A stretch of DNA of 64,000 bases from Escherichia phage vB_EcoM_CUA3, in the sequence record PP410321; one strand, given 5' to 3'. Shown here piece by piece: positions 1,555 through 50,143 of this stretch. The position numbers and the translations under genes are program-made. The notes beneath the pieces were generated by a model. It was given only the letters and a program-made list of their open reading frames with translations, had not been told where the DNA came from and ran no database searches. Position 1 is the first letter of the stretch. Every line of letters begins with the position of its first letter.

Positions 1555-2011
1555 ANNNNNNNNNNNNNNNNNNNNNNNNNNNNNNNNNNNNNNNNNNNNN
1601 NNNNNNNNNNNNNNNNNNNNNNNNNNNNNNNNNNNNNNNNNNNNNNNNNNNNNNNNNNNNNNNNNNNNNNNNNNNNNNNNNNNNNNNNNNNNNNNNNNNN
1701 NNNNNNNNNNNNNNNNNNNNNNNNNNNNNNNNNNNNNNNNNNNNNNNNNNNNNNNNNNNNNNNNNNNNNNNNNNNNNNNNNNNNNNNNNNNNNNNNNNNN
1801 NNNNNNNNNNNNNNNNNNNNNNNNNNNNNNNNNNNNNNNNNNNNNNNNNNNNNNNNNNNNNNNNNNNNNNNNNNNNNNNNNNNNNNNNNNNNNNNNNNNN
1901 NNNNNNNNNNNNNNNNNNNNNNNNNNAATCACCATAATAAATATAATTAAATAGAAGAGTTAGTATTCTTCTGTCACCAAGCCAAATGGTTTAACGGAAG
2001 GACCTAGACCC

Positions 2012-2037
2012 ATTATAACACATCTAAATTTAAAGCA
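2012..2037 (-). promoter_or_regulatory. Putative MotA-dependent middle promoter (MotA box TGCTTTA, 13 nt spacer, -10 TATAAT) reading leftward into masked region
   Basis: Minus strand reads aaTATGCTTTAAatttagatgtgtTATAATggg. Confidence 0.45.
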
Positions 2038-2039
2038 TA

Positions 2040-2249
2040 TTACTTTGAACCAGAACGCGCTTTGCGCCGAACCTTATTGNNNNNNNNNNNNNNNNNNNNN
2101 NNNNNNNNNNNNNNNNNNNNNNNNNNNNNNNNNNNNNNNNNNNNNNNNNNNNNNNNNNNNNNNNNNNNNNNNNNNNNNNNNAATTTTTTAGCAATATCAA
2201 TAAAATTCATACCAGATTCATGTAAAAAATGTACTTTAATCTTATCCAT
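2040..2249 (-). CDS. Small hypothetical protein (24.2/24.3 position), interrupted by N-run
   Basis: ATG at 2249, basic C-terminal tail; middle part masked. Confidence 0.25.
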   Translation of the reverse strand: MDKIKVHFLHESGMNFIDIAKKXXXXXXXXXXXXXXXXXXXXXXXXXXXXXXXXXXXNKVRRKARSGSK

Positions 2250-4282
2250 AACAATTCTCTTGTNNNNNNNNNNNNNNNNNNNNNNNNNNNNNNNNNNNNN
2301 NNNNNNNNNNNNNNNNNNNNNNNNNNNNNNNNNNNNNNNNNNNNNNNNNNNNNNNNNNNNNNNNNNNNNNNNNNNNNNNNNNNNNNNNNNNNNNNNNNNN
2401 NNNNNNNNNNNNNNNNNNNNNNNNNNNNNNNNNNNNNNNNNNNNNNNNNNNNNNNNNNNNNNNNNNNNNNNNNNNNNNNNNNNNNNNNNNNNNNNNNNNN
2501 NNNNNNNNNNNNNNNNNNNNNNNNNNNNNNNNNNNNNNNNNNNNNNNNNNNNNNNNNNNNNNNNNNNNNNNNNNNNNNNNNNNNNNNNNNNNNNNNNNNN
2601 NNNNNNNNNNNNNNNNNNNNNNNNNNNNNNNNNNNNNNNNNNNNNNNNNNNNNNNNNNNNNNNNNNNNNNNNNNNNNNNNNNNNNNNNNNNNNNNNNNNN
2701 NNNNNNNNNNNNNNNNNNNNNNNNNNNNNNNNNNNNNNNNNNNNNNNNNNNNNNNNNNNNNNNNNNNNNNNNNNNNNNNNNNNNNNNNNNNNNNNNNNNN
2801 NNNNNNNNNNNNNNNNNNNNNNNNNNNNNNNNNNNNNNNNNNNNNNNNNNNNNNNNNNNNNNNNNNNNNNNNNNNNNNNNNNNNNNNNNNNNNNNNNNNN
2901 NNNNNNNNNNNNNNNNNNNNNNNNNNNNNNNNNNNNNNNNNNNNNNNNNNNNNNNNNNNNNNNNNNNNNNNNNNNNNNNNNNNNNNNNNNNNNNNNNNNN
3001 NNNNNNNNNNNNNNNNNNNNNNNNNNNNNNNNNNNNNNNNNNNNNNNNNNNNNNNNNNNNNNNNNNNNNNNNNNNNNNNNNNNNNNNNNNNNNNNNNNNN
3101 NNNNNNNNNNNNNNNNNNNNNNNNNNNNNNNNNNNNNNNNNNNNNNNNNNNNNNNNNNNNNNNNNNNNNNNNNNNNNNNNNNNNNNNNNNNNNNNNNNNN
3201 NNNNNNNNNNNNNNNNNNNNNNNNNNNNNNNNNNNNNNNNNNNNNNNNNNNNNNNNNNNNNNNNNNNNNNNNNNNNNNNNNNNNNNNNNNNNNNNNNNNN
3301 NNNNNNNNNNNNNNNNNNNNNNNNNNNNNNNNNNNNNNNNNNNNNNNNNNNNNNNNNNNNNNNNNNNNNNNNNNNNNNNNNNNNNNNNNNNNNNNNNNNN
3401 NNNNNNNNNNNNNNNNNNNNNNNNNNNNNNNNNNNNNNNNNNNNNNNNNNNNNNNNNNNNNNNNNNNNNNNNNNNNNNNNNNNNNNNNNNNNNNNNNNNN
3501 NNNNNNNNNNNNNNNNNNNNNNNNNNNNNNNNNNNNNNNNNNNNNNNNNNNNNNNNNNNNNNNNNNNNNNNNNNNNNNNNNNNNNNNNNNNNNNNNNNNN
3601 NNNNNNNNNNNNNNNNNNNNNNNNNNNNNNNNNNNNNNNNNNNNNNNNNNNNNNNNNNNNNNNNNNNNNNNNNNNNNNNNNNNNNNNNNNNNNNNNNNNN
3701 NNNNNNNNNNNNNNNNNNNNNNNNNNNNNNNNNNNNNNNNNNNNNNNNNNNNNNNNNNNNNNNNNNNNNNNNNNNNNNNNNNNNNNNNNNNNNNNNNNNN
3801 NNNNNNNNNNNNNNNNNNNNNNNNNNNNNNNNNNNNNNNNNNNNNNNNNNNNNNNNNNNNNNNNNNNNNNNNNNNNNNNNNNNNNNNNNNNNNNNNNNNN
3901 NNNNNNNNNNNNNNNNNNNNNNNNNNNNNNNNNNNNNNNNNNNNNNNNNNNNNNNNNNNNNNNNNNNNNNNNNNNNNNNNNNNNNNNNNNNNNNNNNNNN
4001 NNNNNNNNNNNNNNNNNNNNNNNNNNNNNNNNNNNNNNNNNNNNNNNNNNNNNNNNNNNNNNNNNNNNNNNNNNNNNNNNNNNNNNNNNNNNNNNNNNNN
4101 NNNNNNNNNNNNNNNNNNNNNNNNNNNNNNNNNNNNNNNNNNNNNNNNNNNNNNNNNNNNNNNNNNNNNNNNNNNNNNNNNNNNNNNNNNNNNNNNNNNN
4201 NNNNNNNNNNNNNNNNNNNNNNNNNNNNNNNNNNNNNNNNNNNNNNNNNNNNNNNNNNNNNNNNNNNNNNNNNNNNNNNNNN

Positions 4283-5653
4283 ATGAATAATTCTACCGTT
4301 ACGAGATTCTTGTACATCAACCTCTGGATAATCGGCGACCATTTTTTGAAGAGTATAGCGATGGAGATAATATTCACTATCAGGGTCATCAGTTTTCCAG
4401 TCTTTACCTTCAAGTGTCATTTTCTGGATTTCATCCATAACCCACCAACCAGCCCAAATATAAGCTGAATTACGAACAGGAAGTGGATGTACATAAGGTA
4501 GTTCACCGTCAGGAACAGGAGCCACTTTAGCAGTAATTGTTACATTACCTGTTTTTTTGACCGTCACTGGGTTATAATCGGTTGCGGAAACCGCAACAGA
4601 AACTTCAATAACCTGCGAACCTTCAGCACTTGTATCGATTGCCAAAGTATCCGTGGTGCCTGCAACAGGTGAACCATCTTTCTTCCAAGAATATGCAAAA
4701 GTAGCACCAGCAGGGGCACCGGCTACGGTAGCTTTAAAAGAAGCTGGAATTCCTTCAGAGACATTAATAGACGGTGGCGTTAAGTTAACAGAAACACCCG
4801 TCATAGTCTTTTTAGTAATTGTTACACTTCCTGTTTTGGCAACGGTTAAATCTTTATAATCCGCACCTGTTAGGACTACCGAAACTTCAATAGAGTAAGA
4901 ACCTATTGTAGATGTATCGACAGCAAGAATATTGCTGCTTTCGCCTGGAATAATAGAACCATTTTTCTTCCAAGAATAAGTTGCATTTACACCGGAAGGA
5001 GCGCCGATTACATCCGCTTTAAACTGTGCAGATGAGTCTTTCTCTGTACTAATTGAGGCCGGCGTTAAAGTAACAGAAACACCTGACAAAGTTTTCTTAA
5101 CAAAAGTTACAGCAGCACCTTTAGTAGCGGTAGCCGAATTATATTCAGGGGCAGTAACGGTAACTTCACAGTTCAAAGTGTAATTTGCTTCTGCTGCTTC
5201 AGTTATGGTAATAGTTTTACCTGTTTGACCTGATATTACGCTAGTGTTACGTTTCCAAACATAAGCGATTGTTGCACCGGAAGGAGCACCTGTTACGTTA
5301 GCAGTAACAACCTGAGATTGGCCAATTTCTTTAGAAACGGAAGTAGGGTCTAAGGCCAAAGAAATGGTCNNNATGGTCTTATTAACTACGGTGACTTCAA
5401 AAGTATCTTCAGCTACCTCAGGTTCGCCTTCAGCTGGAGTAGAAGTTGCTACTACCTTTAAAACTTTCTTACCAGCCGGAGCCGCACCGGTATATTTCAA
5501 AACATTGGTTGCCTCTGGATTAGAAGCACCGCCAACGGTCCATACATATGTAATGGTTCCTTCTACAGCTGCACCTGTTGCGGTAGCAGTGTAGTTGGCA
5601 CTTTCGCCTATTTTTATAGACGCAGCACCGGCTATACTTACAGTAAAAGCCAT
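4283..5653 (-). CDS. hoc: Hoc outer capsid decoration protein with four Ig-like repeats (3' end masked)
   Basis: Starts MAFTVSIAG; four ~90 aa repeats each with xxYxWxxxG and ending VTVVNKT/VTFVKKT/VTITKKT/VTITAKV, then capsid-binding-like C-terminal segment running into N-run. Confidence 0.8.
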
Positions 5654-15237: not shown

Positions 15238-16190
15238 TGTATACTTTACAAGAATTTCAAAACCAGGCAATTAATATTGACCTGCAGAGGAATAACCTGT
15301 TTAGTGTAGTATTTGCTACAGTTCCTTCTTCTAAATCTCAAGCGCTCCTCGACCAGTTCGGTGGAGCCTTATTTAATAATATTCCTTTAAATACAGATTT
15401 GTTTGGCATTACTCAAGGAGAGTTGACCCAAGGTGTTACGACATTAGTGACAGCGGGCACTCAGAAGTTGATTCGTAAGTCAGGCATAAGTAAATATCTG
15501 ATTGGAGCTATGTCATCCAGGGTTGTGCAGAGCTTACTAGGAGAGTTTGAAGTAGGTACATATCTGATGGATTTTTTCAATATGGCCTATCCTACCGCAG
15601 GTCTTTTAGTCCATGCTGTTAAAATTCCAGATAATACCTTGAATTATGAAATGGATTTGAACCATAACTCGCCTAATATAAAAATTACTGGGAGAGAATA
15701 TTCTCCATTGGTATTAAGCTTCCGTATGGATTCTGAAGCTGCCAACTACCGTGCTTTTAATGATTGGGTCAACAGTGTCCAAGACCCTATTACACAGTTA
15801 AGAGCATTACCGGAGGATGTTGAAGCTGACATCCAAGTCAACCTTCATTCTCGTAATGGATTGCCGCATACAGTAGTAATGCTTAATGGATGTGTTCCTG
15901 TAGGTGTTTCTTCGCCTGAATTATCTTATGATGGCGATAACCAAATTGCTTCGTTTGATGTTACATTTGCTTATAGAAGTGTACAGACAGGTGCAGTTGG
16001 TAAACAAGCCGCTTATGAATGGCTGGAAGATAAAGTCCTTAAAGGCGTAGCAGGCATAAGTGAGAGTAACTCATTAAGTTCTTCTGTAGCTAAACTAAGC
16101 CGACTTTCAGGAGCTTCTAGTGGATTGACTGGATTGGTTAATACATTTGGTGGGCGTGCTATTAATAATGGGGTATCGAGGTTGTTATAA
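15237..16190 (+). CDS. 54: Baseplate tail tube initiator gp54
   Basis: 317 aa, synteny 48-54; ATG overlaps gp48 stop. Confidence 0.85.
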   Translation: MYTLQEFQNQAINIDLQRNNLFSVVFATVPSSKSQALLDQFGGALFNNIPLNTDLFGITQGELTQGVTTLVTAGTQKLIRKSGISKYLIGAMSSRVVQSLLGEFEVGTYLMDFFNMAYPTAGLLVHAVKIPDNTLNYEMDLNHNSPNIKITGREYSPLVLSFRMDSEAANYRAFNDWVNSVQDPITQLRALPEDVEADIQVNLHSRNGLPHTVVMLNGCVPVGVSSPELSYDGDNQIASFDVTFAYRSVQTGAVGKQAAYEWLEDKVLKGVAGISESNSLSSSVAKLSRLSGASSGLTGLVNTFGGRAINNGVSRLL

Positions 16191-16218
16191 CAAAAAAGGA
16201 GAGCGTATGCTCTCCTTT
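16188..16218. terminator. Bidirectional terminator between gp54 (+) and convergent minus-strand genes
   Basis: AAAAAA-GGAGAGC-gtat-GCTCTCC-TTT. Confidence 0.65.
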
Positions 16219-16224
16219 AGGGGG

Positions 16225-16515
16225 TTATTTGCGGAACGAGATAAAACCTGCAGCGGTCATTAATGGCTGCTTTTTAACAAAGACCGTAATAGAAATAGGA
16301 GCTTCAGATTCAAGCTGACCGGTTACTACGCCATTAAAGATATTTTCGGTTTGTTCGGGTTGTGAAAAATTTTCAACCGGACGTAAGTCGAACTGCTTGT
16401 CTTCACCGAAAACTCGACGTAATTCATTACCTACTGCACTGTCGAACTCTTCAGAAGCAGGGATAACGTTTTCAACTACCAACTCTTGACCATTAAAACG
16501 GAATGCAGATTTCAT
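16225..16515 (-). CDS. Hypothetical protein (alt-downstream position)
   Basis: 96 aa ORF, RBS present, between alt-like gene and terminator. Confidence 0.5.
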   Translation of the reverse strand: MKSAFRFNGQELVVENVIPASEEFDSAVGNELRRVFGEDKQFDLRPVENFSQPEQTENIFNGVVTGQLESEAPISITVFVKKQPLMTAAGFISFRK

Positions 16516-16572
16516 AATGTTCTCCTCATGTTTATGTAAGGTAATAGTACCACATCCTTGTTGTGATGTAAA

Positions 16573-18696
16573 CTACATTTTGAATTTATTTGATAAAGAA
16601 GAGATGTCCAAAGATGCAGCAAGGATTTCCATAGCCTCATTACTTTCTGAAACAGATTCTGAAATTAGGAATTCTTTAAACCCGTTCATCAATTTAACTT
16701 CACCGGTTTCCATCAAATGGTCACCATCGTAAACAGATTCACTGAGCTCTGAAGGAGACGTTACGGTAGCTTCCATAAGGTATTTGTGAGATACTCTATC
16801 GTTCATAGCAAAAGCCGCTACTTTATCAACCTTCAACAACAATCCACGCGGAAGGATAATTTCTGCTTCTTCGGCGTATTCTGTAAGGTCACCAGGAGCG
16901 ATAACTTTAACTGCTTCAGCACCTCTAATAACCATACCAATTTCGGCAATTCTATCTGCAGGACCTTCAGGTGCAATTGGATTACCAAACTCGTCTTCTT
17001 CCCATTCTACCTCTTCGTCATCGACTTCACCCACATCAGATGAACTACCGCTGGTCAATTTAAACAACTCATCAGCAGAGGATAAAGAACCTTCACCACC
17101 AACAAAAACGGCTTGGTTGTCGAGGGCCATATAATTTTTACCGAATTCACCAAAGATGTTAGGCTTTAATGAGGCTGATACAAAGTTCTTAAAGTAAAAT
17201 GTTTTGTTATCGATATTATGACGCAGAATTTTGTATGGCAAATCCTGACCACGATACAAAATAGTACCCTTAGGAAGTTTAATACCCTTAGTAAATGCTG
17301 AGTCTAAATCCTTAATCAATCTAATAGCCGTTGTATTGTTTTCGGATTCAGGTTTACCTAAAAGGAATAAGTTCATAGGAGCATATTCGGCCGCACAATA
17401 TTCAATAATGGCGTTACTTTCGTCTTTAGTCAAGCCCTTAGGTTTAATGAGCTCGCCTGAATAAGCATACGCATCACCAATAGAATCGTTAATCAGTTTA
17501 TAAACGGCTTCCATAGCGAAAGCAATTCGGGATGCTTTCTCTGAAGGAGTACCCTTAAAACGGGTGCTCAGGTTATTAACAATTTTCTTAATAATATCCA
17601 GACTATTGGTTGTATTGATTTGCGAAAGGCCGCTTAAAAGTCTATCGACTTCTGTATTAAAAAATGCCATATTTTTAGAGTAAATTTCAAACCCTTGTTT
17701 ATCTCTATTAGCATAGTTTAGTTTAAATTTACTATCGGTCATTAAAGCGTGCGTAAGAGCAATGGTGTATCTAAAGTTGGCAAGGTCCTCACTCTTAGAT
17801 TTAAACTGAGAGGCCTGACGCATTTTAGTAATAGCACCTTTTTTAAAGTTCTGGCTAATCTGTTCAATACCTTCGTTCTCAGGGCCTTCGGCCGAGTGAA
17901 CAGGGACAGAAGCTTCAAACTCGTTATAAACCTGCAATTCTTTAGGTGATAAAGTTTCAGGTTCAGCAGTAGAATACTGCGCTGCTGCAGCCATACGACG
18001 GGAAATCTTAGTACGAGAAATAACAGCCTTATCGGTACGTTTCTCTTCAACCTGTGCAATAGATGCTGCTACGGCTTCTACCTTACTTACGGCCTGGCCG
18101 GTTTTCTTAGAAACATAAACTTCACCGACTTTAGACTCAACCTTGGTATAAAGGTCCGCATCAATTTCAGGCATACCCTTGATATCTTCGATATTAGTGC
18201 CACGACGTGCTAAAAGAACGTATGTATGTTTACCACTAAACTGGAACATATCATCGACAACTTTAAACTTACCACCGGTACGTGCCATCGCCAAACGAGC
18301 TAATACACGCTGAACGGTAGGACCCTTACCTTTCATTTTCTTGGTAGGGAAACGGAACAGAACTGCGTCCATTTTAAGTTTATTTACTTGTTCATATATT
18401 GTATCGAAAATAGTATTCAATGCGCCAAGTGGGTCTGGACCAAGACCACCTTTGAGTTCAGCCGGAGCACCCTTGCTCGATAAACTCATTAGAATAACGT
18501 GGACATATTTGTCGCCGGGCTTAACCATTTTAATAGCGTCTCCTTGAGACGCATAAGATACCATACGAGCAACCAGGTTATCATTACCTGGTGCTTGGAT
18601 AGAGAAAATCTGTGGGATACCTGAGCCTGGCTTAAGATTTGTTACTGGATAGTTTTTAGCTGAATCACTATCAAAAACTTCGTTTAAATTTTCCAT
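16573..18696 (-). CDS. alt: Alt-like ADP-ribosyltransferase (virion-packaged), copy 1
   Basis: 707 aa; conserved blocks shared with T4 Alt; ART signature R (YRGQ), S-x-S (SAS) and E-x-E (EAEII) in C-terminal third. Confidence 0.8.
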   Translation of the reverse strand: MENLNEVFDSDSAKNYPVTNLKPGSGIPQIFSIQAPGNDNLVARMVSYASQGDAIKMVKPGDKYVHVILMSLSSKGAPAELKGGLGPDPLGALNTIFDTIYEQVNKLKMDAVLFRFPTKKMKGKGPTVQRVLARLAMARTGGKFKVVDDMFQFSGKHTYVLLARRGTNIEDIKGMPEIDADLYTKVESKVGEVYVSKKTGQAVSKVEAVAASIAQVEEKRTDKAVISRTKISRRMAAAAQYSTAEPETLSPKELQVYNEFEASVPVHSAEGPENEGIEQISQNFKKGAITKMRQASQFKSKSEDLANFRYTIALTHALMTDSKFKLNYANRDKQGFEIYSKNMAFFNTEVDRLLSGLSQINTTNSLDIIKKIVNNLSTRFKGTPSEKASRIAFAMEAVYKLINDSIGDAYAYSGELIKPKGLTKDESNAIIEYCAAEYAPMNLFLLGKPESENNTTAIRLIKDLDSAFTKGIKLPKGTILYRGQDLPYKILRHNIDNKTFYFKNFVSASLKPNIFGEFGKNYMALDNQAVFVGGEGSLSSADELFKLTSGSSSDVGEVDDEEVEWEEDEFGNPIAPEGPADRIAEIGMVIRGAEAVKVIAPGDLTEYAEEAEIILPRGLLLKVDKVAAFAMNDRVSHKYLMEATVTSPSELSESVYDGDHLMETGEVKLMNGFKEFLISESVSESNEAMEILAASLDISSLSNKFKM

Positions 18697-18699
18697 TAT

Positions 18700-20784
18700 T
18701 TACCCTTGGATGAATTTTTCTGGGATGTCATAGAGGTCTATGCATGAAGCCAAAAGAGGCAGTACGTCAAACCGTGTAGATTTAACAAATGAATCAAAAG
18801 ATACAGGGCTTTCGGAAGTATCGAAGTCATCTTGATATACAACCAATTCACCGGTTTCCATTAGTACGTCACCATCATACACTACAGATTCTTGAAGCTC
18901 ATCTGTCGTCATAACTTCAGCTTGAATGAGTTTTGTATTNNNNNNNNNNNNNNNNNNNNNNNNNNNNNNNNNNNNNNNNNNNNNNNNNNNNNNNNNNNNN
19001 NNNNNNNNNNNNNNNNNNNNNNNNNNNNNNNNNNNNNNNNNNNNNNNNNNNNNNNNNNNNNNNNNNNNNNNNNNNNNNNNNNNNNNNNNNNNNNNNNNNN
19101 NNNNNNNNNNNNNNNNNNNNNNNNNNNNNNNNNNNNNNNNNNNNNNNNNNNNNNNNNNNNNNNNNNNNNNNNNNNNNNNNNNNNNNNNNNNNNNNNNNNN
19201 NNNNTCTAAAAGACCTACACCGGCATGGGTAACACCAAAACGACCGAAAATAATAGGGGTCAGTGAAGTTGATACAAAGTTTCTAAAATAGAATACTTTA
19301 TTTTTNNNNNNNNNNNNNNNNNNNNNNNNNGTCATACTCTGTGCACGATAAACTGTGATGCCTTCAGGTAATCTATCGCCGTTTTCAAAAGCAGAATCCA
19401 AATTATTAACTGCAGATTCGATATCTTTTTCGCTCATAACTTCATAGTTCTGAGGATTATATCGTCCTAAAAGAAGGTTATTGATATCGNNNNNNNNNNN
19501 NNNNNNNNNNNNNNNNNNNNNNNNNNNNNNNNNNNNNNNNNNNNNNNNNNNNNNNNNNNNNANAGTAATATCAACCATAATACCGCCACCTACACCAGCA
19601 AAACTATAAACACGTTTTTTAATGAACTTGGTCTTAGCGGCTTTCCACTTAGACTCGGTCAATTCGTTCCAGAGGTCGTCAGGTTGACCTTTACGAGTTT
19701 TGTTATGCTTAGCCAGCCATTCGCCTTTATATTCTTCAAAAACTGTATTAATAACAGAGGCATATTTTTCTAGAGCTTTAACAGATGTCAAAGGTTCGTT
19801 TTTGATGGCTGTAAGGATTTTCTCTTTAATTTTCTCTTGGATTTCACCTATACCGTGAAGAGGAAACATTTTATAATCGTAATGCAACTCTTCAGCAGTG
19901 CCTTCAGCTACTATATTAGCAACCTTATTTTTAGCCGCAGGAGAATTGTTATTAGTAACCATTTCTTGGGCATCAGGGATTAATGGAGCTGTTGCCGGTT
20001 TATTAAAATCAGCGGCAGTGGCTTCATATTTCTTAAACAGTTCGCTTTCATTACGATAGGATTCTAAAGACTGGCTTGCCGCAATAGCACGTCGAGAAAT
20101 CTTAGTCTTGGTTATAACCATTTTATCGGTGCGACGTTCTTCAACTTTAGCAATACTGCCGGCAATAGCAGTTTCTTTAGTAACCTGCACGCCTTCTTTT
20201 TTAGAAATATAAACTTCACCGACATCAGAATCTACCTTAGTGTATAATTCGGAATTAATTCCAGGCATACCTTTGATATCTTCGATATCAGCTTGTTTAC
20301 GGACTACCAGGATGTAAGTATGTTTACCGGTAAATTGGTACATAGCCGGAACCACTTTAAAACGTCCACCGGTTTTCTGCGCTACCAAACGTTGGATAAT
20401 ACGTTGAACGATAGGGCCTTGACCTTTCATTTTCTTAGTAGGGAAACGGAACATCACGGCATCCATACGAAGCTTTTTAACTTGTTCGAATACTACGTCG
20501 AAAATGGTATTGATAGCATCAATAGGAGTAGGGCCTAAGCCACCTTTGAGTTCAGCCGGAGAACCTTTAGCTGAAAGGCTCATAAGGATAACGTGGGCGT
20601 ATTTATCACCTAATTTAACCTGTTTAATAGCATCGCCTTCAGAGGCATAAGATACCATACGAGCCACCAGTTGGGATTCGGCATCGCCAATCTTCCAAAT
20701 CTGTGGTACTTTAAGTTTTGGGTTTAAGTTTACAGTAGGCAGGGTGCCTTCAGACTCAAACACCTCATTCAATTGTTCGGTCAT
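18700..20784 (-). CDS. Alt-like ADP-ribosyltransferase, copy 2 (paralog; partly masked)
   Basis: 694 aa; N-terminal 230 aa collinear with copy 1; YRAQ and STS motifs present, E-x-E region masked. Confidence 0.75.
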   Translation of the reverse strand: MTEQLNEVFESEGTLPTVNLNPKLKVPQIWKIGDAESQLVARMVSYASEGDAIKQVKLGDKYAHVILMSLSAKGSPAELKGGLGPTPIDAINTIFDVVFEQVKKLRMDAVMFRFPTKKMKGQGPIVQRIIQRLVAQKTGGRFKVVPAMYQFTGKHTYILVVRKQADIEDIKGMPGINSELYTKVDSDVGEVYISKKEGVQVTKETAIAGSIAKVEERRTDKMVITKTKISRRAIAASQSLESYRNESELFKKYEATAADFNKPATAPLIPDAQEMVTNNNSPAAKNKVANIVAEGTAEELHYDYKMFPLHGIGEIQEKIKEKILTAIKNEPLTSVKALEKYASVINTVFEEYKGEWLAKHNKTRKGQPDDLWNELTESKWKAAKTKFIKKRVYSFAGVGGGIMVDITXXXXXXXXXXXXXXXXXXXXXXXXXDINNLLLGRYNPQNYEVMSEKDIESAVNNLDSAFENGDRLPEGITVYRAQSMXXXXXXXXXKNKVFYFRNFVSTSLTPIIFGRFGVTHAGVGLLXXXXXXXXXXXXXXXXXXXXXXXXXXXXXXXXXXXXXXXXXXXXXXXXXXXXXXXXXXXXXXXXXXXXXXXXXXXXXXXXXXXXXXXXXNTKLIQAEVMTTDELQESVVYDGDVLMETGELVVYQDDFDTSESPVSFDSFVKSTRFDVLPLLASCIDLYDIPEKFIQG

Positions 20785-20820
20785 AATAATTCCTCTTTAA
20801 TAACCGTATTTATGCCATAA

Positions 20821-20836
20821 AAGGCCCGAAGGCCTT
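20821..20836 (-). terminator. UUCG-tetraloop hairpin / terminator after the ligase operon
   Basis: Minus strand AAGGCC-UUCG-GGCCUU followed by TTTTAT. Confidence 0.5.
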
Positions 20837-21005
20837 AAAGTACTAATAATGTACGATATACTTCGAACTTAGGCCCCTTTTCATACCGGTCAAAAGTATC
20901 TTTGAAATCAGCAAAAGCGATTTCATTTTCAAANNNNNNNNNNNNNNNNNNNNNNNNNNNNNNNNNNNNNNNNNNNNNNNNNNNNGTTTCTAAATAAGCT
21001 TTCAT
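20835..21005 (-). CDS. Small hypothetical protein downstream of ligase (middle masked)
   Basis: ATG at 21005 one nt after ligase stop; C-terminal FENEIAFADFKDTFDRYEKGPKFEVYRTLLVL. Confidence 0.35.
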   Translation of the reverse strand: MKAYLEXXXXXXXXXXXXXXXXXXFENEIAFADFKDTFDRYEKGPKFEVYRTLLVL

Positions 21006-21006
21006 A

Positions 21007-22530
21007 TTATAGTCCAGTTTGAGACCAATCACCGAATACATCTTCAAATGAATCGGCTTCTGTTTTATCGAAGCGCCATCCTTTAATAATTATAAGGAAA
21101 ACACCTACAGTATCAGTACGTCCTTTAGAATGGACCCAACCATTACATTCACAATCGGCAATACGTCCAATCAACTTACCTTCACGAGCTTGTTTCATAA
21201 GAAGTTCGCGGTCCATATCAGGACGATCTTCTAAAGGAATTAATACCTTTTTGCCTGCTTTATTTTTCTTATGAGTAGTATCCTTAAAGCCGGAACCACA
21301 GTCGGTTGTAATACGACGACAACGTGATACTAACTCAACACCACCAATCTTATTAGGGTCTTTAGAGTGTTCATAGTAACCTACCACTTCTAAAGCAATA
21401 TCGATTACTTCTTTGAATTTAATAAGGTTTTTAGAACGACGGTTTTCCCAGTAGGAGTCCATGTTCTTAAGGATAATACCTTCCAGATTTTGGTCGATGT
21501 ATTTTTTATAAACGACTTTAGCTTCTTCGAGATTATTAACCCATTGNNNNNNNNNNNNNNNNNNNNNNNNNNNNNNNNNNNNNNNNNNNNNNNNNNNNNN
21601 NNNNNNNNNNNNNNNNNNNNNNNNNNNNNNNNNNNNNNNNNNNNNNNNNNNNNNNNNNNNNNNNNNNNCATCCAATGGAACATAGTCCCATGCCTGCAAT
21701 ACCATACCATCTGCTTCAGCTGGAGTAATGGTTCCTTGGAGGGCTTTATTAGCCAAACCATTTGAAGTAGAACGGTCGGCGACTGTCTGGAATTCCTTGG
21801 CTTTACTTAATTCTGGAAGTTCTTCATCAAACATACTAAACAAATCGTTAGCTGCTTTCGGTTCAACCTTAGGTGTATGGTAAACTAATTCACCATCAAT
21901 CATAACACCATTAGGATGACGCTGACGAGCTTCTTCAGTCATNNNNNNNNNNNNNNNNNNNNNNNNNNTAAGCCCTTGATATTCATTACCACCGCGAGTA
22001 AGGAATGTTACCCCATCGTTACGAACTTCAGCAAAGCAACGAGCACCGTCAGCTTTTAATTGAGCGAACGCTGGCCATTTAATATTTTTCTTAATCAGAG
22101 CTTCGTCATAAGAACTGGCCAACATCTGTGGTTGTTCAGGGATTAAACCTTTCCAAACCTTGTTAGCAATAGAAATCGATGCACCACATTCAAGGTCGCG
22201 CATCATTACACGACGTAATACCTCAGCGTCTGGACCCTTGGCATCGGCAATAATTTGGGCAAGTTCTTCAATAGCAGCATTACCTGTAATCTTACGGGTT
22301 GCTAGTGTGAACTCAGCGAAATCAAGAAGGTCTTCAAGTGTAATCATACCAAAGGACTGAGACGTAAATCCAGGTTCTGGCCACTTTTTAATACCATAGT
22401 TCAGACGACGGGTATAAGCCATACGATAAACACGTTTCAGAAGCTCGTTATCCTTTTCACGAGCAATAATAGCTTCTTTAGCTTTAGTAGAATCAATAGC
22501 AGCAATTTCGTTCAAAATATCTAAAATCAT
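21007..22530 (-). CDS. 30: ATP-dependent DNA ligase
   Basis: 507 aa; adenylation motif KADGAR; collinear with T4 gp30; three short N-masks inside. Confidence 0.9.
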   Translation of the reverse strand: MILDILNEIAAIDSTKAKEAIIAREKDNELLKRVYRMAYTRRLNYGIKKWPEPGFTSQSFGMITLEDLLDFAEFTLATRKITGNAAIEELAQIIADAKGPDAEVLRRVMMRDLECGASISIANKVWKGLIPEQPQMLASSYDEALIKKNIKWPAFAQLKADGARCFAEVRNDGVTFLTRGGNEYQGLXXXXXXXXXMTEEARQRHPNGVMIDGELVYHTPKVEPKAANDLFSMFDEELPELSKAKEFQTVADRSTSNGLANKALQGTITPAEADGMVLQAWDYVPLDXXXXXXXXXXXXXXXXXXXXXXXXXXXXXXXXXXXXXXXXXQWVNNLEEAKVVYKKYIDQNLEGIILKNMDSYWENRRSKNLIKFKEVIDIALEVVGYYEHSKDPNKIGGVELVSRCRRITTDCGSGFKDTTHKKNKAGKKVLIPLEDRPDMDRELLMKQAREGKLIGRIADCECNGWVHSKGRTDTVGVFLIIIKGWRFDKTEADSFEDVFGDWSQTGL

Positions 22531-44312: not shown

Positions 44313-47300
44313 ATGGCTGATATTTTAAAACCTGCATTCCGTGCTACATCCGGACTCGATGCTGCGGGCGAGAAAGTTATCAATGTTGCCAAAGCCGATT
44401 ACAATGTACTAGATGATGGCGTCAACGTTGAATTCTTTATAGATGAGAACACCATCCAGGCGTACGACGAGACGCGCGGATATAAGAAAGGGTTTGCAGT
44501 AATCCATGACCAACGTATTTGGGTTGCTCAACGTGATATCGATGCGCCAGCTGGAACTTTTGTACCTGGTTATTGGACCGCTACCCGTACTGACCCTAAG
44601 TGGATTACCGTAGCATCTCCTACTCGCCAGTTGGCTTCCGGTGAATATATTGCAGTGGATTCTGCGGCTAGCTTTACTACATTTACTCTGCCTCCGAACC
44701 CTACAGACGGTGATACCATTGTAATCAAAGATATCGGTGGTCGTGTAGGTTATAATGAAATCAAAGTTCAATCTAGTTCTGCACCTGGTGGTGGTAACCA
44801 GAAAATTGTTCGATTTGGTAATCAGTTCTCTGAAACTCTGATAACCAAACCTTTTTCTTATAACATGCTTATCTTTGCTAATCGTTTATGGCATTTCTGG
44901 GAAGCTGGTAACGAAGAACGTGGTATTCGTGTAGAGCCTAACACCGCTCAGTTCCAAGCTCAAGCAGGTGATAACGTTTTACGTCGTTATACTTCTGGTG
45001 CAGTAATTAAATTTACTCTTCCTAAGTATGCGAACCAAGGTGATATGGTTAAAACCGTTGATATCGATGGTCTTGGAAGTAAGTTCCATTTAATCGTTGA
45101 AACGTTTGATGCATCGTCTTCATTAGGTAAGCCCGACCAGCATAGCATGGAATTCCGTACCTCCGGTGATGGATTCTTTGTTTATAACTCTGTTGAAAAA
45201 ATGTGGTATGTTTGGGACGGCGATCGTCAAACTCGTTTACGTGTAATTCGTGACGATGTTGAGCTCTTGGCTAATGAAAGCGTTATCGTTTTTGGTCCTA
45301 ATAATACGACCCCACAAACTATTAATATCACTTTACCTACTAACGTAGCGCAAGGCGATACTATTAAAATCGCATTGAACTACCTTCGTAAAGCTCAGAC
45401 CGTAAATATTAAGGCCGCTGTAGGAGATAAGATTGCTTCTTCGGTTCAATTACTCCAGTTCCCTAAACGTTCGGAATATCCACCAGATACTGAATGGGTT
45501 CTGAATGACGTACTGACCTTTAATGGTAACTTAAGTTATACTCCGGTTATTGAACTTAGCTATATCGAAGATACCACCACAGGTGGAAAATATTGGGTTG
45601 TTGCTCAGAACGTTCCTACTGTAGAACGTGTCGATTCTAAGGACGATTTAACTCGTGCTCGTCTTGGTGTTATTGCCCTTGCGTCTCAGACTCAGGCAAA
45701 CGTCGACCATGAAAATAATCCTGAGAAAGAACTTGCAATTACTCCGCAGACTTTAGCCAATCGTGTAGCGACCGAAACTCGTCGTGGTATTGCTCGTATT
45801 GCTACAACAGCTCAAGTTAACCAGAACACGACTTTCGCTTTCCAGGACGATTTGATTATTTCTCCTAAGAAATTAAACGAACGTACTGCTACCGAAACTC
45901 GTCGCGGTGTCGCTGAAATTGCTACGCAACAGGAAACTGATGCTGGTGTTGATGATACAACCATTATCACTCCTAAGAAGCTACAGACGCGCCAGGGAAC
46001 TGAAACCCTGTCTGGTATAGTAAAATATNNNNNNNNNNNNNNNNNNNNNNNNNNNNNNNNNNNNNNNACTGTAGGTACCAACGTTTATAATAAGAACNNN
46101 NNNNNTTTAGTTATTTCTCCTAAAGCTTTAGACCAGTATAAAGCTNNNNNNNNNNNNNNNNNNNNNNNNNNNNNNNNNNNNNNNNNNNNNNNNNNNNNNN
46201 NNNNNNNNNNNNNNNNNNNNNNNNNNNNNNNNNNNNNNNNNNNNNNNNNNNNNNNNNNNNNNNNNNNNNNNNNNNNNNNNNNNTTAATTGAAATTGCTAC
46301 GCAAGCAGAGACTGATGCTGGAACTGATTATACTCGTGCGGTAACGCCCAAGACGTTAAATGATAGGAAGGCTACAGANNGATTAACTGGTATTGCTCGT
46401 ATTGGTACTCAAGTAGAATTTGATGCAGGTGTATTAGATAATGTTATTTCAACTCCGTTGAAAATTAAAACAAGATTTAATGATACTGCTAGAACTTCTG
46501 TCTCAGCAGCCAGTGGTTTGGTTGAATCAGGAACCTTATGGAACCATTATACACTAGATATCCGTGAAGCAAGTAATACCCAACGTGGTACGGCTCGTTT
46601 GGCTACCCAAACTGAAGTTAATNNNNNNNNNNNNNNNNNNNNNNNNNNNNNNNNNNNNNNNNNNNNNNNNNNNNNNNNNNNNNNNNNNNNNNNNNNNNNN
46701 NNNNNNNNNNNNNNNNNNNNNNNNNNNNNNNNNNNNNNNNNNNNNNNNNNNNNNNNNNNNNNNNNNNNNNNNNNNNNNNNNNNNNNNNNNNNNNNNNNNN
46801 NNNNNNNNNNNNNNNNNNNNNNNNNNNNNNNNNNNNNNNNNNNNNNNNNNNNNNNNNNNNNNNNNNNNNNNNNNNNNNNNNNNNNNNNNNNNNNNNNNNN
46901 NNNNNNNNNNNNNNNNNNNNNNNNNNNNNNNNNNNNNNNNNNNNNNNNNNNNNNNNNNNNNNNNNNNNNNNNNNNNNNNNNNNNNNNNNNNNNNNNNNNN
47001 NNNNNNNNNNNNNNNNNNNNNNNNNNNNNNNNNNNNNNNNNNNNNNNNNNNNNNNNNNNNNNNNNNNNNNNNNNNNNNNNNNNNNNNNNNNNNNNNNNNN
47101 NNNNNNNNNNNNNNNNNNNNNNNNNNNNNNNNNNNNNNNNNNNNNNNNNNNNNNNNNNNNNNNNNNNNNNNNNNNNNNNNNNNNNNNNNNNNNNNNNNNN
47201 NNNNNNNNNNNNNNNNNNNNNNNNNNNNNNNNNNNNNNNNNNNNNNNNNNNNNNNNNNNNNNNNNNNNNNNNNNNNNNNNNNNNNNNNNNNNNNNNNNNN

Positions 47301-48281
47301 NNNNNNNNNNNNNNNNNNNNNNNNNNNNNNNNNNNNNNNNNNNNNNNNNNNNNNNNNNNNNNNNNNNNNNNNNNNNNNNNNNNNNNNNNNNNNNNNNNNN
47401 NNNNNNNNNNNNNNNNNNNNNNNNNNNNNNNNNNNNNNNNNNNNNNNNNNNNNNNNNNNNNNNNNNNNNNNNNNNNNNNNNNNNNNNNNNNNNNNNNNNN
47501 NNNNNNNNNNNNNNNNNNNNNNNNNNNNNNNNNNNNNNNNNNNNNNNNNNNNNNNNNNNNNNNNNNNNNNNNNNNNNNNNNNNNNNNNNNNNNNNNNNNN
47601 NNNNNNNNNNNNNNNNNNNNNNNNNNNNNNNNNNNNNNNNNNNNNNNNNNNNNNNNNNNNNNNNNNNNNNNNNNNNNNNNNNNNNNNNNNNNNNNNNNNN
47701 NNNNNNNNNNNNNNNNNNNNNNNNNNNNNNNNNNNNNNNNNNNNNNNNNNNNNNNNNNNNNNNNNNNNNNNNNNNNNNNNNNNNNNNNNNNNNNNNNNNN
47801 NNNNNNNNNNNNNNNNNNNNNNNNNNNNNNNNNNNNNNNNNNNNNNNNNNNNNNNNNNNNNNNNNNNNNNNNNNNNNNNNNNNNNNNNNNNNNNNNNNNN
47901 NNNNNNNNNNNNNNNNNNNNNNNNNNNNNNNNNNNNNNNNNNNNNNNNNNNNNNNNNNNNNAAGTTAAATCACCTGGTACATTAACCCAGTTCGGTAATA
48001 CNNNNNNNNNNNNNNNNNNNNNNNNNNNNNNNNNNNNNNNNNNNNNNNNNNNNNNNNNNNNNNNNNNNNNNNNNNNNNNNNNNNNNNNNNNNNNNNNNNN
48101 NNNNNNNNNNNNNNNNNNNNNNNNNNNNNNNNNNNNNNNNNNNNNNNNNNNNNNNNNNNNNNNNNNNNNNNNNNNNNNNNNNNNNNNNNNNNNNNNNNNN
48201 NNNGATTGGCTGCGTATTGGTAACGTTCGTATAATTCCAGACCCAGTAACTCGTTCTGTTAAATTCGAATGGATTGAATAA
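44313..48281 (+). CDS. 34: Long tail fibre proximal subunit gp34 (several internal masks)
   Basis: 1322 aa; N-terminal and repeated TATETRRGVAEIATQ-type motifs as in T4 gp34; C-terminal RIGNVRIIPDPVTRSVKFEWIE. Confidence 0.9.
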   Translation: MADILKPAFRATSGLDAAGEKVINVAKADYNVLDDGVNVEFFIDENTIQAYDETRGYKKGFAVIHDQRIWVAQRDIDAPAGTFVPGYWTATRTDPKWITVASPTRQLASGEYIAVDSAASFTTFTLPPNPTDGDTIVIKDIGGRVGYNEIKVQSSSAPGGGNQKIVRFGNQFSETLITKPFSYNMLIFANRLWHFWEAGNEERGIRVEPNTAQFQAQAGDNVLRRYTSGAVIKFTLPKYANQGDMVKTVDIDGLGSKFHLIVETFDASSSLGKPDQHSMEFRTSGDGFFVYNSVEKMWYVWDGDRQTRLRVIRDDVELLANESVIVFGPNNTTPQTINITLPTNVAQGDTIKIALNYLRKAQTVNIKAAVGDKIASSVQLLQFPKRSEYPPDTEWVLNDVLTFNGNLSYTPVIELSYIEDTTTGGKYWVVAQNVPTVERVDSKDDLTRARLGVIALASQTQANVDHENNPEKELAITPQTLANRVATETRRGIARIATTAQVNQNTTFAFQDDLIISPKKLNERTATETRRGVAEIATQQETDAGVDDTTIITPKKLQTRQGTETLSGIVKYXXXXXXXXXXXXXTVGTNVYNKNXXXLVISPKALDQYKAXXXXXXXXXXXXXXXXXXXXXXXXXXXXXXXXXXXXXXXXXXXXXXLIEIATQAETDAGTDYTRAVTPKTLNDRKATXXLTGIARIGTQVEFDAGVLDNVISTPLKIKTRFNDTARTSVSAASGLVESGTLWNHYTLDIREASNTQRGTARLATQTEVNXXXXXXXXXXXXXXXXXXXXXXXXXXXXXXXXXXXXXXXXXXXXXXXXXXXXXXXXXXXXXXXXXXXXXXXXXXXXXXXXXXXXXXXXXXXXXXXXXXXXXXXXXXXXXXXXXXXXXXXXXXXXXXXXXXXXXXXXXXXXXXXXXXXXXXXXXXXXXXXXXXXXXXXXXXXXXXXXXXXXXXXXXXXXXXXXXXXXXXXXXXXXXXXXXXXXXXXXXXXXXXXXXXXXXXXXXXXXXXXXXXXXXXXXXXXXXXXXXXXXXXXXXXXXXXXXXXXXXXXXXXXXXXXXXXXXXXXXXXXXXXXXXXXXXXXXXXXXXXXXXXXXXXXXXXXXXXXXXXXXXXXXXXXXXXXXXXXXXXXXXXXXXXXXXXXXXXXXXXXXXXXXXXXXXXXXXXXXXXXXXXXXXXXXXXXXXXXXXXXXXXXXXXXXXXXXXXXXXXXXXXXXXXXVKSPGTLTQFGNXXXXXXXXXXXXXXXXXXXXXXXXXXXXXXXXXXXXXXXXXXXXXXXXXXXXXXXXXXXXXXXXXXXXDWLRIGNVRIIPDPVTRSVKFEWIE

Positions 48282-48289
48282 GAGGTAAT

Positions 48290-49044
48290 ATGGAAAGATT
48301 TATGGCTGAATTTGGACAAGATTACGTTCAAATTCCTGTACTATCTGAAAATAATGCCGTTAGTTATAAACTTAGTATAGCAGGGAGCTGTACTAAGTCC
48401 ACTAAAAAGGCTTATATTAAATTTCAAGATGAGGACTTCGGTCCNNNNNNNNNNNNNNNNNNNNNNNNNNNNNNNNNNNNNNNNNNNNNNNNNNNNNNNN
48501 NNNNNNNNNNNNNNNNNNNNNNNNNNNNNNNNNNNNNNNNNNNNNNNNNNNNNNNNNNNNNNNNNNNNNNNNNNNNNNNNNNNNNNNNNNNNNNNNNNNN
48601 NNNNNNNNNNNNNNNNNNNNNNNNNNNNNNNNNNNNNNNNNNNNNNNNNNNNNNNNNNNNNNNNNNNNNNNNNNNNNNNNNNNNNNNNNNNNNNNNNNNN
48701 NNNNNNNNNNNNNNNNNNNNNNNNNNNNNNNNNNNNNNNNNNNNNNNNNNNNNNATGGAACACGTTCTTTATAACGACGGCGTTTTAGTTGAAGATGTTT
48801 CAACTCCATTAGAAGTNNNNNNNNNNNNNNNNNNNNNNNNNNNNNNNNNNNNNNNNNNNNNNNNNNNNNNNNNNNNNNNNNNNNNNNNNNNNNNNNNNNN
48901 NNNNNNNNNNNNNNNNNNNNNNNNNNNNNNNNNNNNNNNNACTCCTTGTGCGGATTATAANATGGTTCCTGGGGATTTCTTTTATCTTAAATTCCAAATG
49001 ACTTATGACCAGGCTTTAAAAGATTTAGGGACGACCCAGATGTC
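48290..49044 (+). CDS. 35: Long tail fibre hinge protein gp35 (mostly masked; true 3' end not visible)
   Basis: Starts 6 nt after gp34 stop; expected gp35 and gp36 fill 48290-50140 but are largely N. Confidence 0.5.
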
Positions 49045-50143
49045 NNNNNNNNNNNNNNNNNNNNNNNNNNNNNNNNNNNNNNNNNNNNNNNNNNNNNNNN
49101 NNNNNNNNNNNNNNNNNNNNNNNNNNNNNNNNNNNNNNNNNNNNNNNNNNNNNNNNNNNNNNNNNNNNNNNNNNNNNNNNNNNNNNNNNNNNNNNNNNNN
49201 NNNNNNNNNNNNNNNNNNNNNNNNNNNNNNNNNNNNNNNNNNNNNNNNNNNNNNNNNNNNNNNNNNNNNNNNNNNNNNNNNNNNNNNNNNNNNNNNNNNN
49301 NNNNNNNNNNNNNNNNNNNNNNNNNNNNNNNNNNNNNNNNNNNNNNNNNNNNNNNNNNNNNNNNNNNNNNNNNNNNNNNNNNNNNNNNNNNNNNNNNNNN
49401 NNNNNNNNNNNNNNNNNNNNNNNNNNNNNNNNNNNNNNNNNNNNNNNNNNNNNNNNNNNNNNNNNNNNNNNNNNNNNNNNNNNNNNNNNNNNNNNNNNNN
49501 NNNNNNNNNNNNNNNNNNNNNNNNNNNNNNNNNNNNNNNNNNNNNNNNNNNNNNNNNNNNNNNNNNNNNNNNNNNNNNNNNNNNNNNNNNNNNNNNNNNN
49601 NNNNNNNNNNNNNNNNNNNNNNNNNNNNNNNNNNNNNNNNNNNNNNNNNNNNNNNNNNNNNNNNNNNNNNNNNNNNNNNNNNNNNNNNNNNNNNNNNNNN
49701 NNNNNNNNNNNNNNNNNNNNNNNNNNNNNNNNNNNNNNNNNNNNNNNNNNNNNNNNNNNNNNNNNNNNNNNNNNNNNNNNNNNNNNNNNNNNNNNNNNNN
49801 NNNNNNNNNNNNNNNNNNNNNNNNNNNNNNNNNNNNNNNNNNNNNNNNNNNNNNNNNNNNNNNNNNNNNNNNNNNNNNNNNNNNNNNNNNNNNNNNNNNN
49901 NNNNNNNNNNNNNNNNNNNNNNCCTGGTAACACCCCTACTAAAGCCCAAGTAGGTTTNGCGATNGTAGATAACGCAAAACAGGTCCAAATAAATAATAGT
50001 AACATACAANNNNNNNNNNNNNNNNNNNNNNNNNNNNNNNNNNNNNNNNNNNNNNNNNNNNNNNNNNNNNNNNNNNNNNNNNNNNNNNNNNNNNNNNNNN
50101 NNNNNNNNNNNNNTNAAGATTTTGGATATTATTAAGAGGCATT

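Follow-up and report, generated by a model that had tools for sequence, protein, structure and literature searches.

Why should a phage related to T4 carry two genes for Alt, an enzyme delivered into the host with the phage DNA, and do the two products do the same work? The question is raised by a 64,000-nucleotide stretch of DNA from Escherichia phage vB_EcoM_CUA3 (record PP410321), referred to here as the window. A preliminary description of this DNA, made from the letters alone, pointed to two adjacent genes resembling the ADP-ribosyltransferase (ART) gene alt of T4 and proposed that a duplicated and diversified pair of packaged enzymes has two target specificities. The genes are named altA and altB here, in order of transcription (Table 1). 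As a whole, the locus is best explained, and in our judgement probably so, as encoding paralogous, probably arginine-specific mono-ADP-ribosyltransferases of the T4 Alt family in a JS98-like phage. Comparison with related phages adds that the enzymatic part of each gene, the cargo, has been exchanged between phages and between the two gene positions, termed slot A and slot B.

The two open reading frames (ORFs) are of 707 and 694 amino acids and lie on the same strand, and the junction sequence GGGTAAATAATGGAA (GGG TAA ATA ATG) leaves a spacer of 3 nucleotides, in agreement with the preliminary description. What that description called copy 2 (18700-20784) is the upstream gene altA, since the strand is minus, and its copy 1 is altB, the more diverged of the two. 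Pairwise alignment establishes that the copies are homologous, as BLASTP gives 39% identity over 553 columns (E 2e-113), which is far beyond chance. Identity is 66% over AltB residues 1-236, 13% over residues 237-420, 45% in the first (N-terminal) half of the ART domain and 42% in the C-terminal tail (the last 67 residues). The shared blocks reported earlier (VARMVSYAS[QE]GDAIK, LKGGLGP, FRFPTKKMKG.GP.VQR, GKHTY.L, DIKGMP and KISRR) are present in both proteins. The earlier picture of some 230 similar N-terminal residues and a diverged remainder thus stands, with the qualification that homology remains recognisable in the ART domain and in the tail.

Profile searches place both copies in the ART/Alt family, as had been suggested. 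Pfam PF03496 (ADPrib_exo_Tox, 'ADP-ribosyltransferase exoenzyme') matches AltB with an E of 8e-17 and AltA with an E of 1e-12. PHROG 802 ('Alt-like RNA polymerase ADP-ribosyltransferase') aligns with AltB from end to end (E 8e-251) and with AltA in two stretches around a masked part (E 6e-209), in both proteins from residue 1 and hence with the N-terminal domain included. NCBIfam has no family for either protein. On these alignments and profile matches, AltA and AltB are paralogues of the T4 Alt family. The ART region of the AltA of phage dhaeg, a near-identical orthologue, is 65-66% identical to that of T4 Alt, and the figure for the ART region of AltB is about 40%; AltA is therefore taken as the closer relative of T4 Alt and AltB as the diverged paralogue.

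Both copies carry the motifs on which the preliminary description had relied, namely YRGQ or YRAQ and SAS or STS, and the E-A-E of its copy 1 falls at residues 610-612 of AltB. The AlphaFold model of AltB has a predicted local distance difference test score (pLDDT) of 79.3 and a predicted template modelling score (pTM) of 0.73. In Foldseek searches it matches Vis, C3, Certhrax, CDTa and VIP2 with E values down to 1e-7 and target-relative template modelling (TM) scores of 0.6-0.7, and as modelled AltB has an ART fold of the C3/Vis type, belonging to the R-S-E (C3/VIP2) clade. A sequence search against PDB chains returned just weak matches to C3 exoenzyme (E 0.03-0.3) and no solved Alt structure. 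AltB shares with C3 exoenzyme, Vis, Certhrax, VIP2 and CDTa the ART fold and the arrangement of R, S-x-S and E-x-E, but it is only 12-19% identical to these toxins, and they have neither the Alt N-terminal domain nor the central helical region nor the prohead-protease propeptides. In C3 itself the motif is Q-x-E, and asparagine is the residue modified. Between the S-x-S and E-x-E motifs AltB carries an acidic insertion that is absent from AltA and T4 Alt and that is predicted to be disordered (pLDDT below 50 at residues 551-566 and 573-578).

Table 1. Features of the altA-altB locus, with positions counted from the first letter of the window and residues numbered in the protein named.
Feature	Position	Strand	Basis or remark
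altA, 694 amino acids, upstream gene, three runs of N	18700..20784	-	ORF; Pfam, PHROG; 'alta' in JS98
altB, 707 amino acids, downstream gene, complete R-S-ExE set	16573..18696	-	ORF; Pfam, PHROG; 'altb' in JS98; ART-fold model
AltA N-terminal domain, about residues 1-234, A-slot type	20083..20784	-	93-99% identical among A-slot genes of five Dhakaviruses
AltA Arg480 (YRAQ)	19345..19347	-	motif position
AltA S505-T506-S507	19264..19272	-	motif position
Masked run of 265 N in altA	18940..19204		covers about 88 codons, among them those of the expected E-x-E
AltB N-terminal domain, residues 1-236, B-slot type	17989..18696	-	90-99% identical among B-slot genes
AltB central all-helical region, residues 237-420	17437..17988	-	helices 251-417 in the model
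AltB ART domain, residues 421-645	16762..17436	-	PF03496 on residues 421-521; Foldseek matches
AltB catalytic Arg482 (YRGQ)	17251..17253	-	at least 90% conserved in 77 homologues
AltB S507-A508-S509 (S-x-S)	17170..17178	-	S507 invariant and S509 at least 90% conserved in 77 homologues
AltB acidic insertion, 57 residues, 526-582	16951-17121	-	between S-x-S and E-x-E; 17 D+E against 2 K+R
AltB E610-A611-E612 (E-x-E)	16861..16869	-	E610 and E612 invariant in 77 homologues
AltA L5-N6-E7, predicted N-terminal gp21 site	20764..20772	-	T4 alignment column
AltA L630-Q631-E632, predicted C-terminal gp21 site	18889..18897	-	T4 alignment column
AltB L4-N5-E6, predicted N-terminal gp21 site	18679..18687	-	same column as T4 ITE-6
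AltB L651-S652-E653, predicted C-terminal gp21 site	16738..16746	-	same column as T4 LTE-619
CATAAATA, promoter-like	20807..20814	-	one mismatch to the T4 late promoter TATAAATA; 22 nucleotides upstream of the altA start
GGCCTTCGGGCC hairpin, then a T-rich stretch	20823..20834	-	directly after the alt.1 stop codon; conserved in T4
alt.-3 homologue, 96 amino acids	16225..16515	-	ORF; annotated alt.-3 in JS98 and T4; last gene of the probable altA-altB-alt.-3 unit
Terminator-like hairpin, 10-base-pair stem and T run	16195..16218	-	between alt.-3 and the convergent gene 54

The ART domain of AltA is partly masked, and its readable half aligns. In the sequence record altA contains runs of N at 18940-19204, 19306-19330 and 19490-19561, with one further N at 19563; no run shifts the reading frame, as conserved protein sequence continues in frame behind each of them. 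The AltA forms of 686 amino acids (dhaeg, CLB_P2) and 694 amino acids (QL01, Bp7, ESCO10) have ATEAE[IV]ILPRG at the position that is masked here, and all close relatives of AltA keep E-A-E or E-K-E there (ATEAE[IV]ILPRG or NEKEIILPRG); nothing points to a loss of the motif. With the E-x-E motif taken from these relatives, AltA is predicted to be catalytically active. In T4 a published Alt mutant named E577A is catalytically dead (PMC11404850). In the RefSeq T4 Alt the glutamates of E-x-E are residues 574 and 576, a numbering that does not match the published E577A. At its readable positions AltA is 99% identical to the 686-residue dhaeg protein, yet it has the length of the 694-residue QL01/Bp7 form; since the readable parts are of the dhaeg type, the masked stretch should hold the 8 extra codons, and altA may itself be a mosaic.

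The slot A and slot B genes of five Dhakaviruses (the window, dhaeg, JS98, Bp7 and VR5) were compared with each other and with T4 Alt. The N-terminal domains are specific to the slot, being 93-99% identical among A genes and 90-99% among B genes. The region of residues 240-645 occurs in at least five types across the two slots. Slot A holds one type in dhaeg, the window and Bp7, another in JS98 and a third in VR5, the last being 68% identical to T4 Alt. Slot B holds one type in the window, dhaeg and JS98, another in Bp7, which is 70% identical to T4 Alt, and a third in VR5, which has at most 31% identity to any other. The T4-like cargo thus changes slot, as it is found in the first gene (A) in VR5 and in the second gene (B) in Bp7. 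The AltA proteins of dhaeg and JS98 are 99% identical in the N-terminal domain and 97% in the tail but just 36-67% in between. Sliding-window identity shows sharp breakpoints near residue 236, to which the AltA pair of dhaeg and JS98 adds a second one near residue 646. Likewise, the slot B protein of Bp7 and a metagenomic protein with an A-type N-terminal domain share 98-99% identity over everything from residue 237 onwards, against only 71% in their N-terminal domains.

Cargo has therefore been exchanged between phages and between slots while the N-terminal domain stayed fixed for each slot. This conclusion is well supported and goes beyond the existing annotation, and a literature search found no paper describing such an exchange. 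A broader proposal, which is put forward tentatively and with somewhat more doubt than confidence, is that the alt locus of T4-like phages is a two-slot polymorphic-effector system in which cargo cassettes recombine and address different host targets or defences. The slot-constant N-terminal domain would stay with the phage lineage and may serve in head-core incorporation or in ejection. The proteins of both slots would end in a C-terminal propeptide, and an exchangeable cassette made up of a helical region and an ART domain would lie between the N-terminal domain and the propeptide. In effect, the phages would inject two enzymes whose identities vary and which are directed against different host targets or defence systems. 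Such an arrangement recalls the MuF-fused or head-packaged polymorphic effectors described by Iyer et al. (2017, 2022), in which a constant virion module is joined to a variable effector and encoded among late or structural genes. It differs from these in that the Alt N-terminal domain is not MuF and that the cargo is again an ART in nearly all of 70 clusters with this domain.

These 70 clusters (at 50% identity) are the only ones with the Alt N-terminal domain among 1.84 billion proteins in an exhaustive HMMER search. Nearly all of the matches lie at the N-terminus of the protein, most of them cover most of residues 1-240, and most of the clusters are of 600-712 amino acids, the size range of Alt. 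Among phages, 1201 records have the domain at 1823 matching places, and about half of these records have two. In precomputed Pfam assignments the homologues have PF26846 alongside PF03496; a scan of the N-terminal domain alone against a local copy of Pfam gave no match for AltA, AltB or T4 Alt. The idea that the domain is a general delivery handle for cargos other than ARTs was not supported, as no clear non-ART cargo was found among the clusters apart from one uncharacterised protein of 541 amino acids, the domain scan having covered only the 10 atypical clusters of the 70. The outlier proteins P0170, P0171 and P0175 have ART-like motifs by eye. The 541-residue protein is P0173, a metagenomic protein in which about 370 residues without a Pfam or PHROG match or a visible ART motif come after the Alt N-terminal domain; it may carry a non-ART cargo.

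A separate model of AltB residues 1-240 (pLDDT 87.8, pTM 0.86) predicts a compact alpha/beta domain, which might in principle be a second enzyme. GNATs carry a pyrophosphate-binding loop roughly where the N-terminal domain has a nearly invariant G-L-G-P loop (residues 84-87), directly before a helix at residues 89-106, and a GNAT-type acyltransferase at this place would make the Alt proteins bifunctional effectors. The fold itself speaks against such a reading, as the N-terminal arm of the GNAT fold is absent from the model and Foldseek returned nothing significant (best E 3e-3, TM about 0.25), the hits being a mixture of DNase I-like and GNAT structures. With no Pfam or NCBIfam match to add, a GNAT activity is considered improbable.

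The likeness of the two N-terminal domains also calls for an explanation, and one candidate, instead of functional constraint, is a recent gene conversion or a recent duplication. The domains are nearer to each other (64-69%) than to T4 Alt (39-46%), and the relic of a second copy in T4 is most like T4's own Alt (56-62%), which fits concerted evolution at some past time. The divergence between the domains is far too great for a recent event, however. At 66% protein identity their synonymous divergence (dS) is 1.2-1.8, near saturation, with a nonsynonymous divergence (dN) of 0.31, and the longest DNA repeat between the two genes spans 286 nucleotides at 75% identity. Any conversion must then be ancient, with the likeness now kept by purifying selection, and recent conversion was rejected on these grounds; the chance that it explains the similarity is put at very little. 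Between the window and dhaeg the orthologues of both genes have a dN of 0-0.014 and a dS of 0.13-0.32, values by which both genes are under purifying selection between phages. The N-terminal similarity is accordingly read as that of an old duplicate held by selection, and the closer resemblance of the A and B domains to one another fits ancient concerted evolution or co-adaptation to a lineage-specific partner.

A second copy does not always persist. In T4, alt.-1 and alt.-2 lie between alt and alt.-3, and the T4 record calls them an old duplication of the first part of alt. Translated, alt.-2/alt.-1 (5066-5451 in the T4 locus) correspond to Alt residues 1-117 with a stop codon dividing them, and they occupy exactly the altB slot. 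They are nearest to T4's own Alt and slightly nearer to AltB than to AltA of the present phage, and by this position and alignment they are what is left of a second copy that stood at the altB place. Since the T4 copy was cut to two short ORFs covering about the first 117 residues, the second slot can evidently be lost, and altB might likewise be a redundant or decaying duplicate without independent enzymatic function. This is highly improbable for altB, which is an intact ORF of 707 amino acids with all catalytic residues. Its orthologues in dhaeg and JS98 differ by a dN of 0-0.007 against a dS of 0.05-0.14, and orthologues at 95-99% identity are found in 41 phage records. The T4 second copy is thus a relic, whereas the second copy here is complete and under purifying selection, so that T4 has one functional alt copy and the present phage two. 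Full-length second copies are common elsewhere, and AltB-type cargo at 51% identity occurs in many Tequatroviruses. A second alt-derived gene directly downstream of alt is present also in RB14 ('alt.-2'), Bp7 (alt'), 44RR (ORF187c) and the Acinetobacter phages Ac42 and ZZ1.

T4 Alt (gpAlt, 682 amino acids) resembles the two proteins in its three-part architecture, genomic position, R-S-ExE residues (in AltA, the legible R and S-x-S) and L-x-E motifs at both ends. It is unlike them in its N-terminal domain, which is 39-46% identical, and the cargo of AltB is only about 30% identical to that of T4. T4 Alt belongs to the prohead core, where it numbers about 40 copies, and enters the host on ejection (PMC9026906). 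Mass spectrometry showed that the prohead protease cuts it at ITE-6 and LTE-619 to leave a protein of 68.2 kDa (PMC5694885), which is also the computed mass of T4 Alt residues 7-619. Because L-x-E motifs stand at the T4 Alt cleavage columns in both AltA and AltB, both are predicted to be packaged and trimmed. In AltB, E653 is invariant in 77 homologues, the 54 residues beyond it would be a propeptide, and the predicted mature protein has 647 residues and a mass of 71.1 kDa. By analogy with T4, then, packaging, cleavage by the prohead protease gp21 and injection would apply to AltA and AltB alike.

Expression of the pair appears to follow the T4 pattern as well. The hairpin upstream of altA recurs at the equivalent place in T4, where the canonical late promoter TATAAATA comes after it, and the pattern of a hairpin plus ATAAATA occurs once per locus in all four of the related loci examined. 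No perfect TATAAATA was found near altA or altB, and the homologous element is CATAAATA. No late-promoter-like element lies between altA and altB. A scan for sigma-70-type promoters and terminators gave counts no higher than those in shuffled sequence, the sole convincing hairpin being that at 16195-16218, and an Rfam scan of 16000-21300 gave no matches. Because CATAAATA stands upstream, no such element lies between the genes and a hairpin follows alt.-3, a single late transcript of altA, altB and alt.-3 is suggested. The hairpin region at 16195-16224 has T runs on both sides and lies between the convergent genes alt.-3 and 54, and it could terminate transcription in both directions.

From these elements a sequence of steps can be proposed by analogy with T4 Alt. 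Late transcription would start from CATAAATA and yield one unit with alt.-3, and AltA and AltB would be incorporated in the prohead core. The prohead protease would trim their ends after L-N-E (residue 6 or 7) and after L-S-E 653 in AltB or L-Q-E 632 in AltA. The mature proteins, of roughly 68-71 kDa, would be ejected with the DNA and would carry out NAD+-dependent ADP-ribosylation of host proteins before any phage gene expression. Each protein would be built of a conserved, slot-specific N-terminal domain of about 235 residues, a cargo at about residues 240-645 (a helical region of about 180 residues and the ART domain) and a C-terminal propeptide.

The two enzymes most likely modify different sets of host proteins, because their helical regions are unlike, their ART domains are 40-45% identical, AltB has its insertion, and the sequence before E-x-E differs. 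This last segment, which lies just before E-x-E at the position of the ADP-ribosylating turn-turn (ARTT) loop in C3-type ARTs, differs between AltA and AltB. A comparison of the central regions of the AltA/T4 type and of AltB by hhalign gave a probability of 3.9% and no detectable homology, a weak negative given the shallow profiles (Neff, the effective number of sequences, 2.4). It is thus a reasonable inference that AltA and AltB have distinct target sets and are delivered at injection, as the preliminary description had proposed.

Several considerations weigh against this account. Two cargos need not mean two target sets, since ARTs that are about 40% identical can share substrates. The masked codons of AltA, about 120 in total and including those of E-x-E, could hide a change that inactivates the enzyme or a stop codon within the gene. 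In the promoter-like element, whose activity is assumed, C replaces the first T of TATAAATA; this first position is poorly conserved in T4 relatives, but there it is A or T, and the usual alternative is A and not C (PMC1524935). A literature search found no virion proteome, cleavage or substrate data for any Dhakavirus Alt.

What the injected enzymes act upon is best known from T4, where Alt ADP-ribosylates the alpha subunit of RNA polymerase and other host proteins immediately after injection (PMC9026906). More recently T4 Alt was found to counter the Mokosh type I defence system, being needed to evade it, and the variant Alt of phage Bas37 cannot replace it in this role (bioRxiv 10.1101/2025.11.20.689424). 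The result fits both the exchange of cargo and the idea of two specificities. It also favours a different emphasis, in which both copies are mainly anti-defence effectors directed at host immunity or toxins rather than modulators of transcription, forming a two-slot arsenal whose cargo is swapped in the course of an arms race. Interference of Alt with MazEF, cited in the same work (bioRxiv 10.1101/2025.11.20.689424), points in this direction, as do the cargo swaps between phages and slots around a fixed N-terminal domain. The neighbouring gene alt.-3 adds to this, as it can mutate to block the CmdTAC system in T4; mutants with a C-terminal extension of Alt.-3 escape this defence (PMC11618068). 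On the other side, nothing in the window ties either copy to a particular defence system, and an anti-defence role is compatible with modification of RNA polymerase, so that it would refine the best explanation and not replace it. As the main function of both copies it is judged rather unlikely. The preferred reading thus remains that of two T4 Alt-family transferases with probably different host targets.

The phage itself is readily placed. The DNA of the window is 95% identical to that of the Dhakaviruses CLB_P2 and dhaeg and 92-94% identical to that of IME08, JS10 and JS98, and by this measure the phage is a JS98-like relative of T4 in the genus Dhakavirus. The order of genes in T4 is kept, with 29, 48 and 54 on one strand and alt.-3, alt, alt.1 and gene 30 on the other. 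The pair thus occupies the position of the Alt family, between gene 30/alt.1 and alt.-3/gene 54. The genes are annotated alta and altb in the records of JS98, JS10 and IME08, flanked by alt.-3 and alt.1, and in the JS98 record the equivalent of 18700..20784 is 'alta' and that of 16573..18696 is 'altb'. JS98, JS10, IME08, dhaeg and CLB_P2 match the window in having altA and altB, in their order and in the genes on either side, their DNA being 92-95% identical. AltB is 97-99% identical to the dhaeg and JS98 proteins; the AltA of JS98 differs in having another cargo, which is 36-67% identical in the middle.

The tandem pair is therefore already known as an ordinary annotated feature of JS98-like coliphages. 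Nolan et al. (2006) listed as paralogues alt.-1/alt.-2, RB49 ORF183c, 44RR ORF188c and a full-length duplicate, 44RR ORF187c (PMC1524935), and Jin et al. (2014) reported the duplication of alt for Ac42, JS98 and Bp7 as well (PMC4177764). A literature search for phage altA and altB by these names found no papers. ORFs of 66-121 amino acids on the plus strand overlap both genes, which are themselves well supported on the opposite strand. Large parts of the window are masked by N (about 2000-4300, 46000-54000 and elsewhere) and have a GC fraction near zero in the composition profile, and much of what appears to be the long-tail-fibre region falls within them. The window yielded no tRNA genes.

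The tandem pair as such is nothing new, and it is the pattern of cargo exchange that may merit a small comparative study. Alt is the first phage enzyme to act in T4 infection, since it is delivered with the DNA, and a phage with two different versions of Alt probably modifies more host proteins at the very start of infection. As Alt variants differ in the defence that they overcome, knowledge of which cargo occupies each slot could help to predict the host range of therapeutic T4-like phages.

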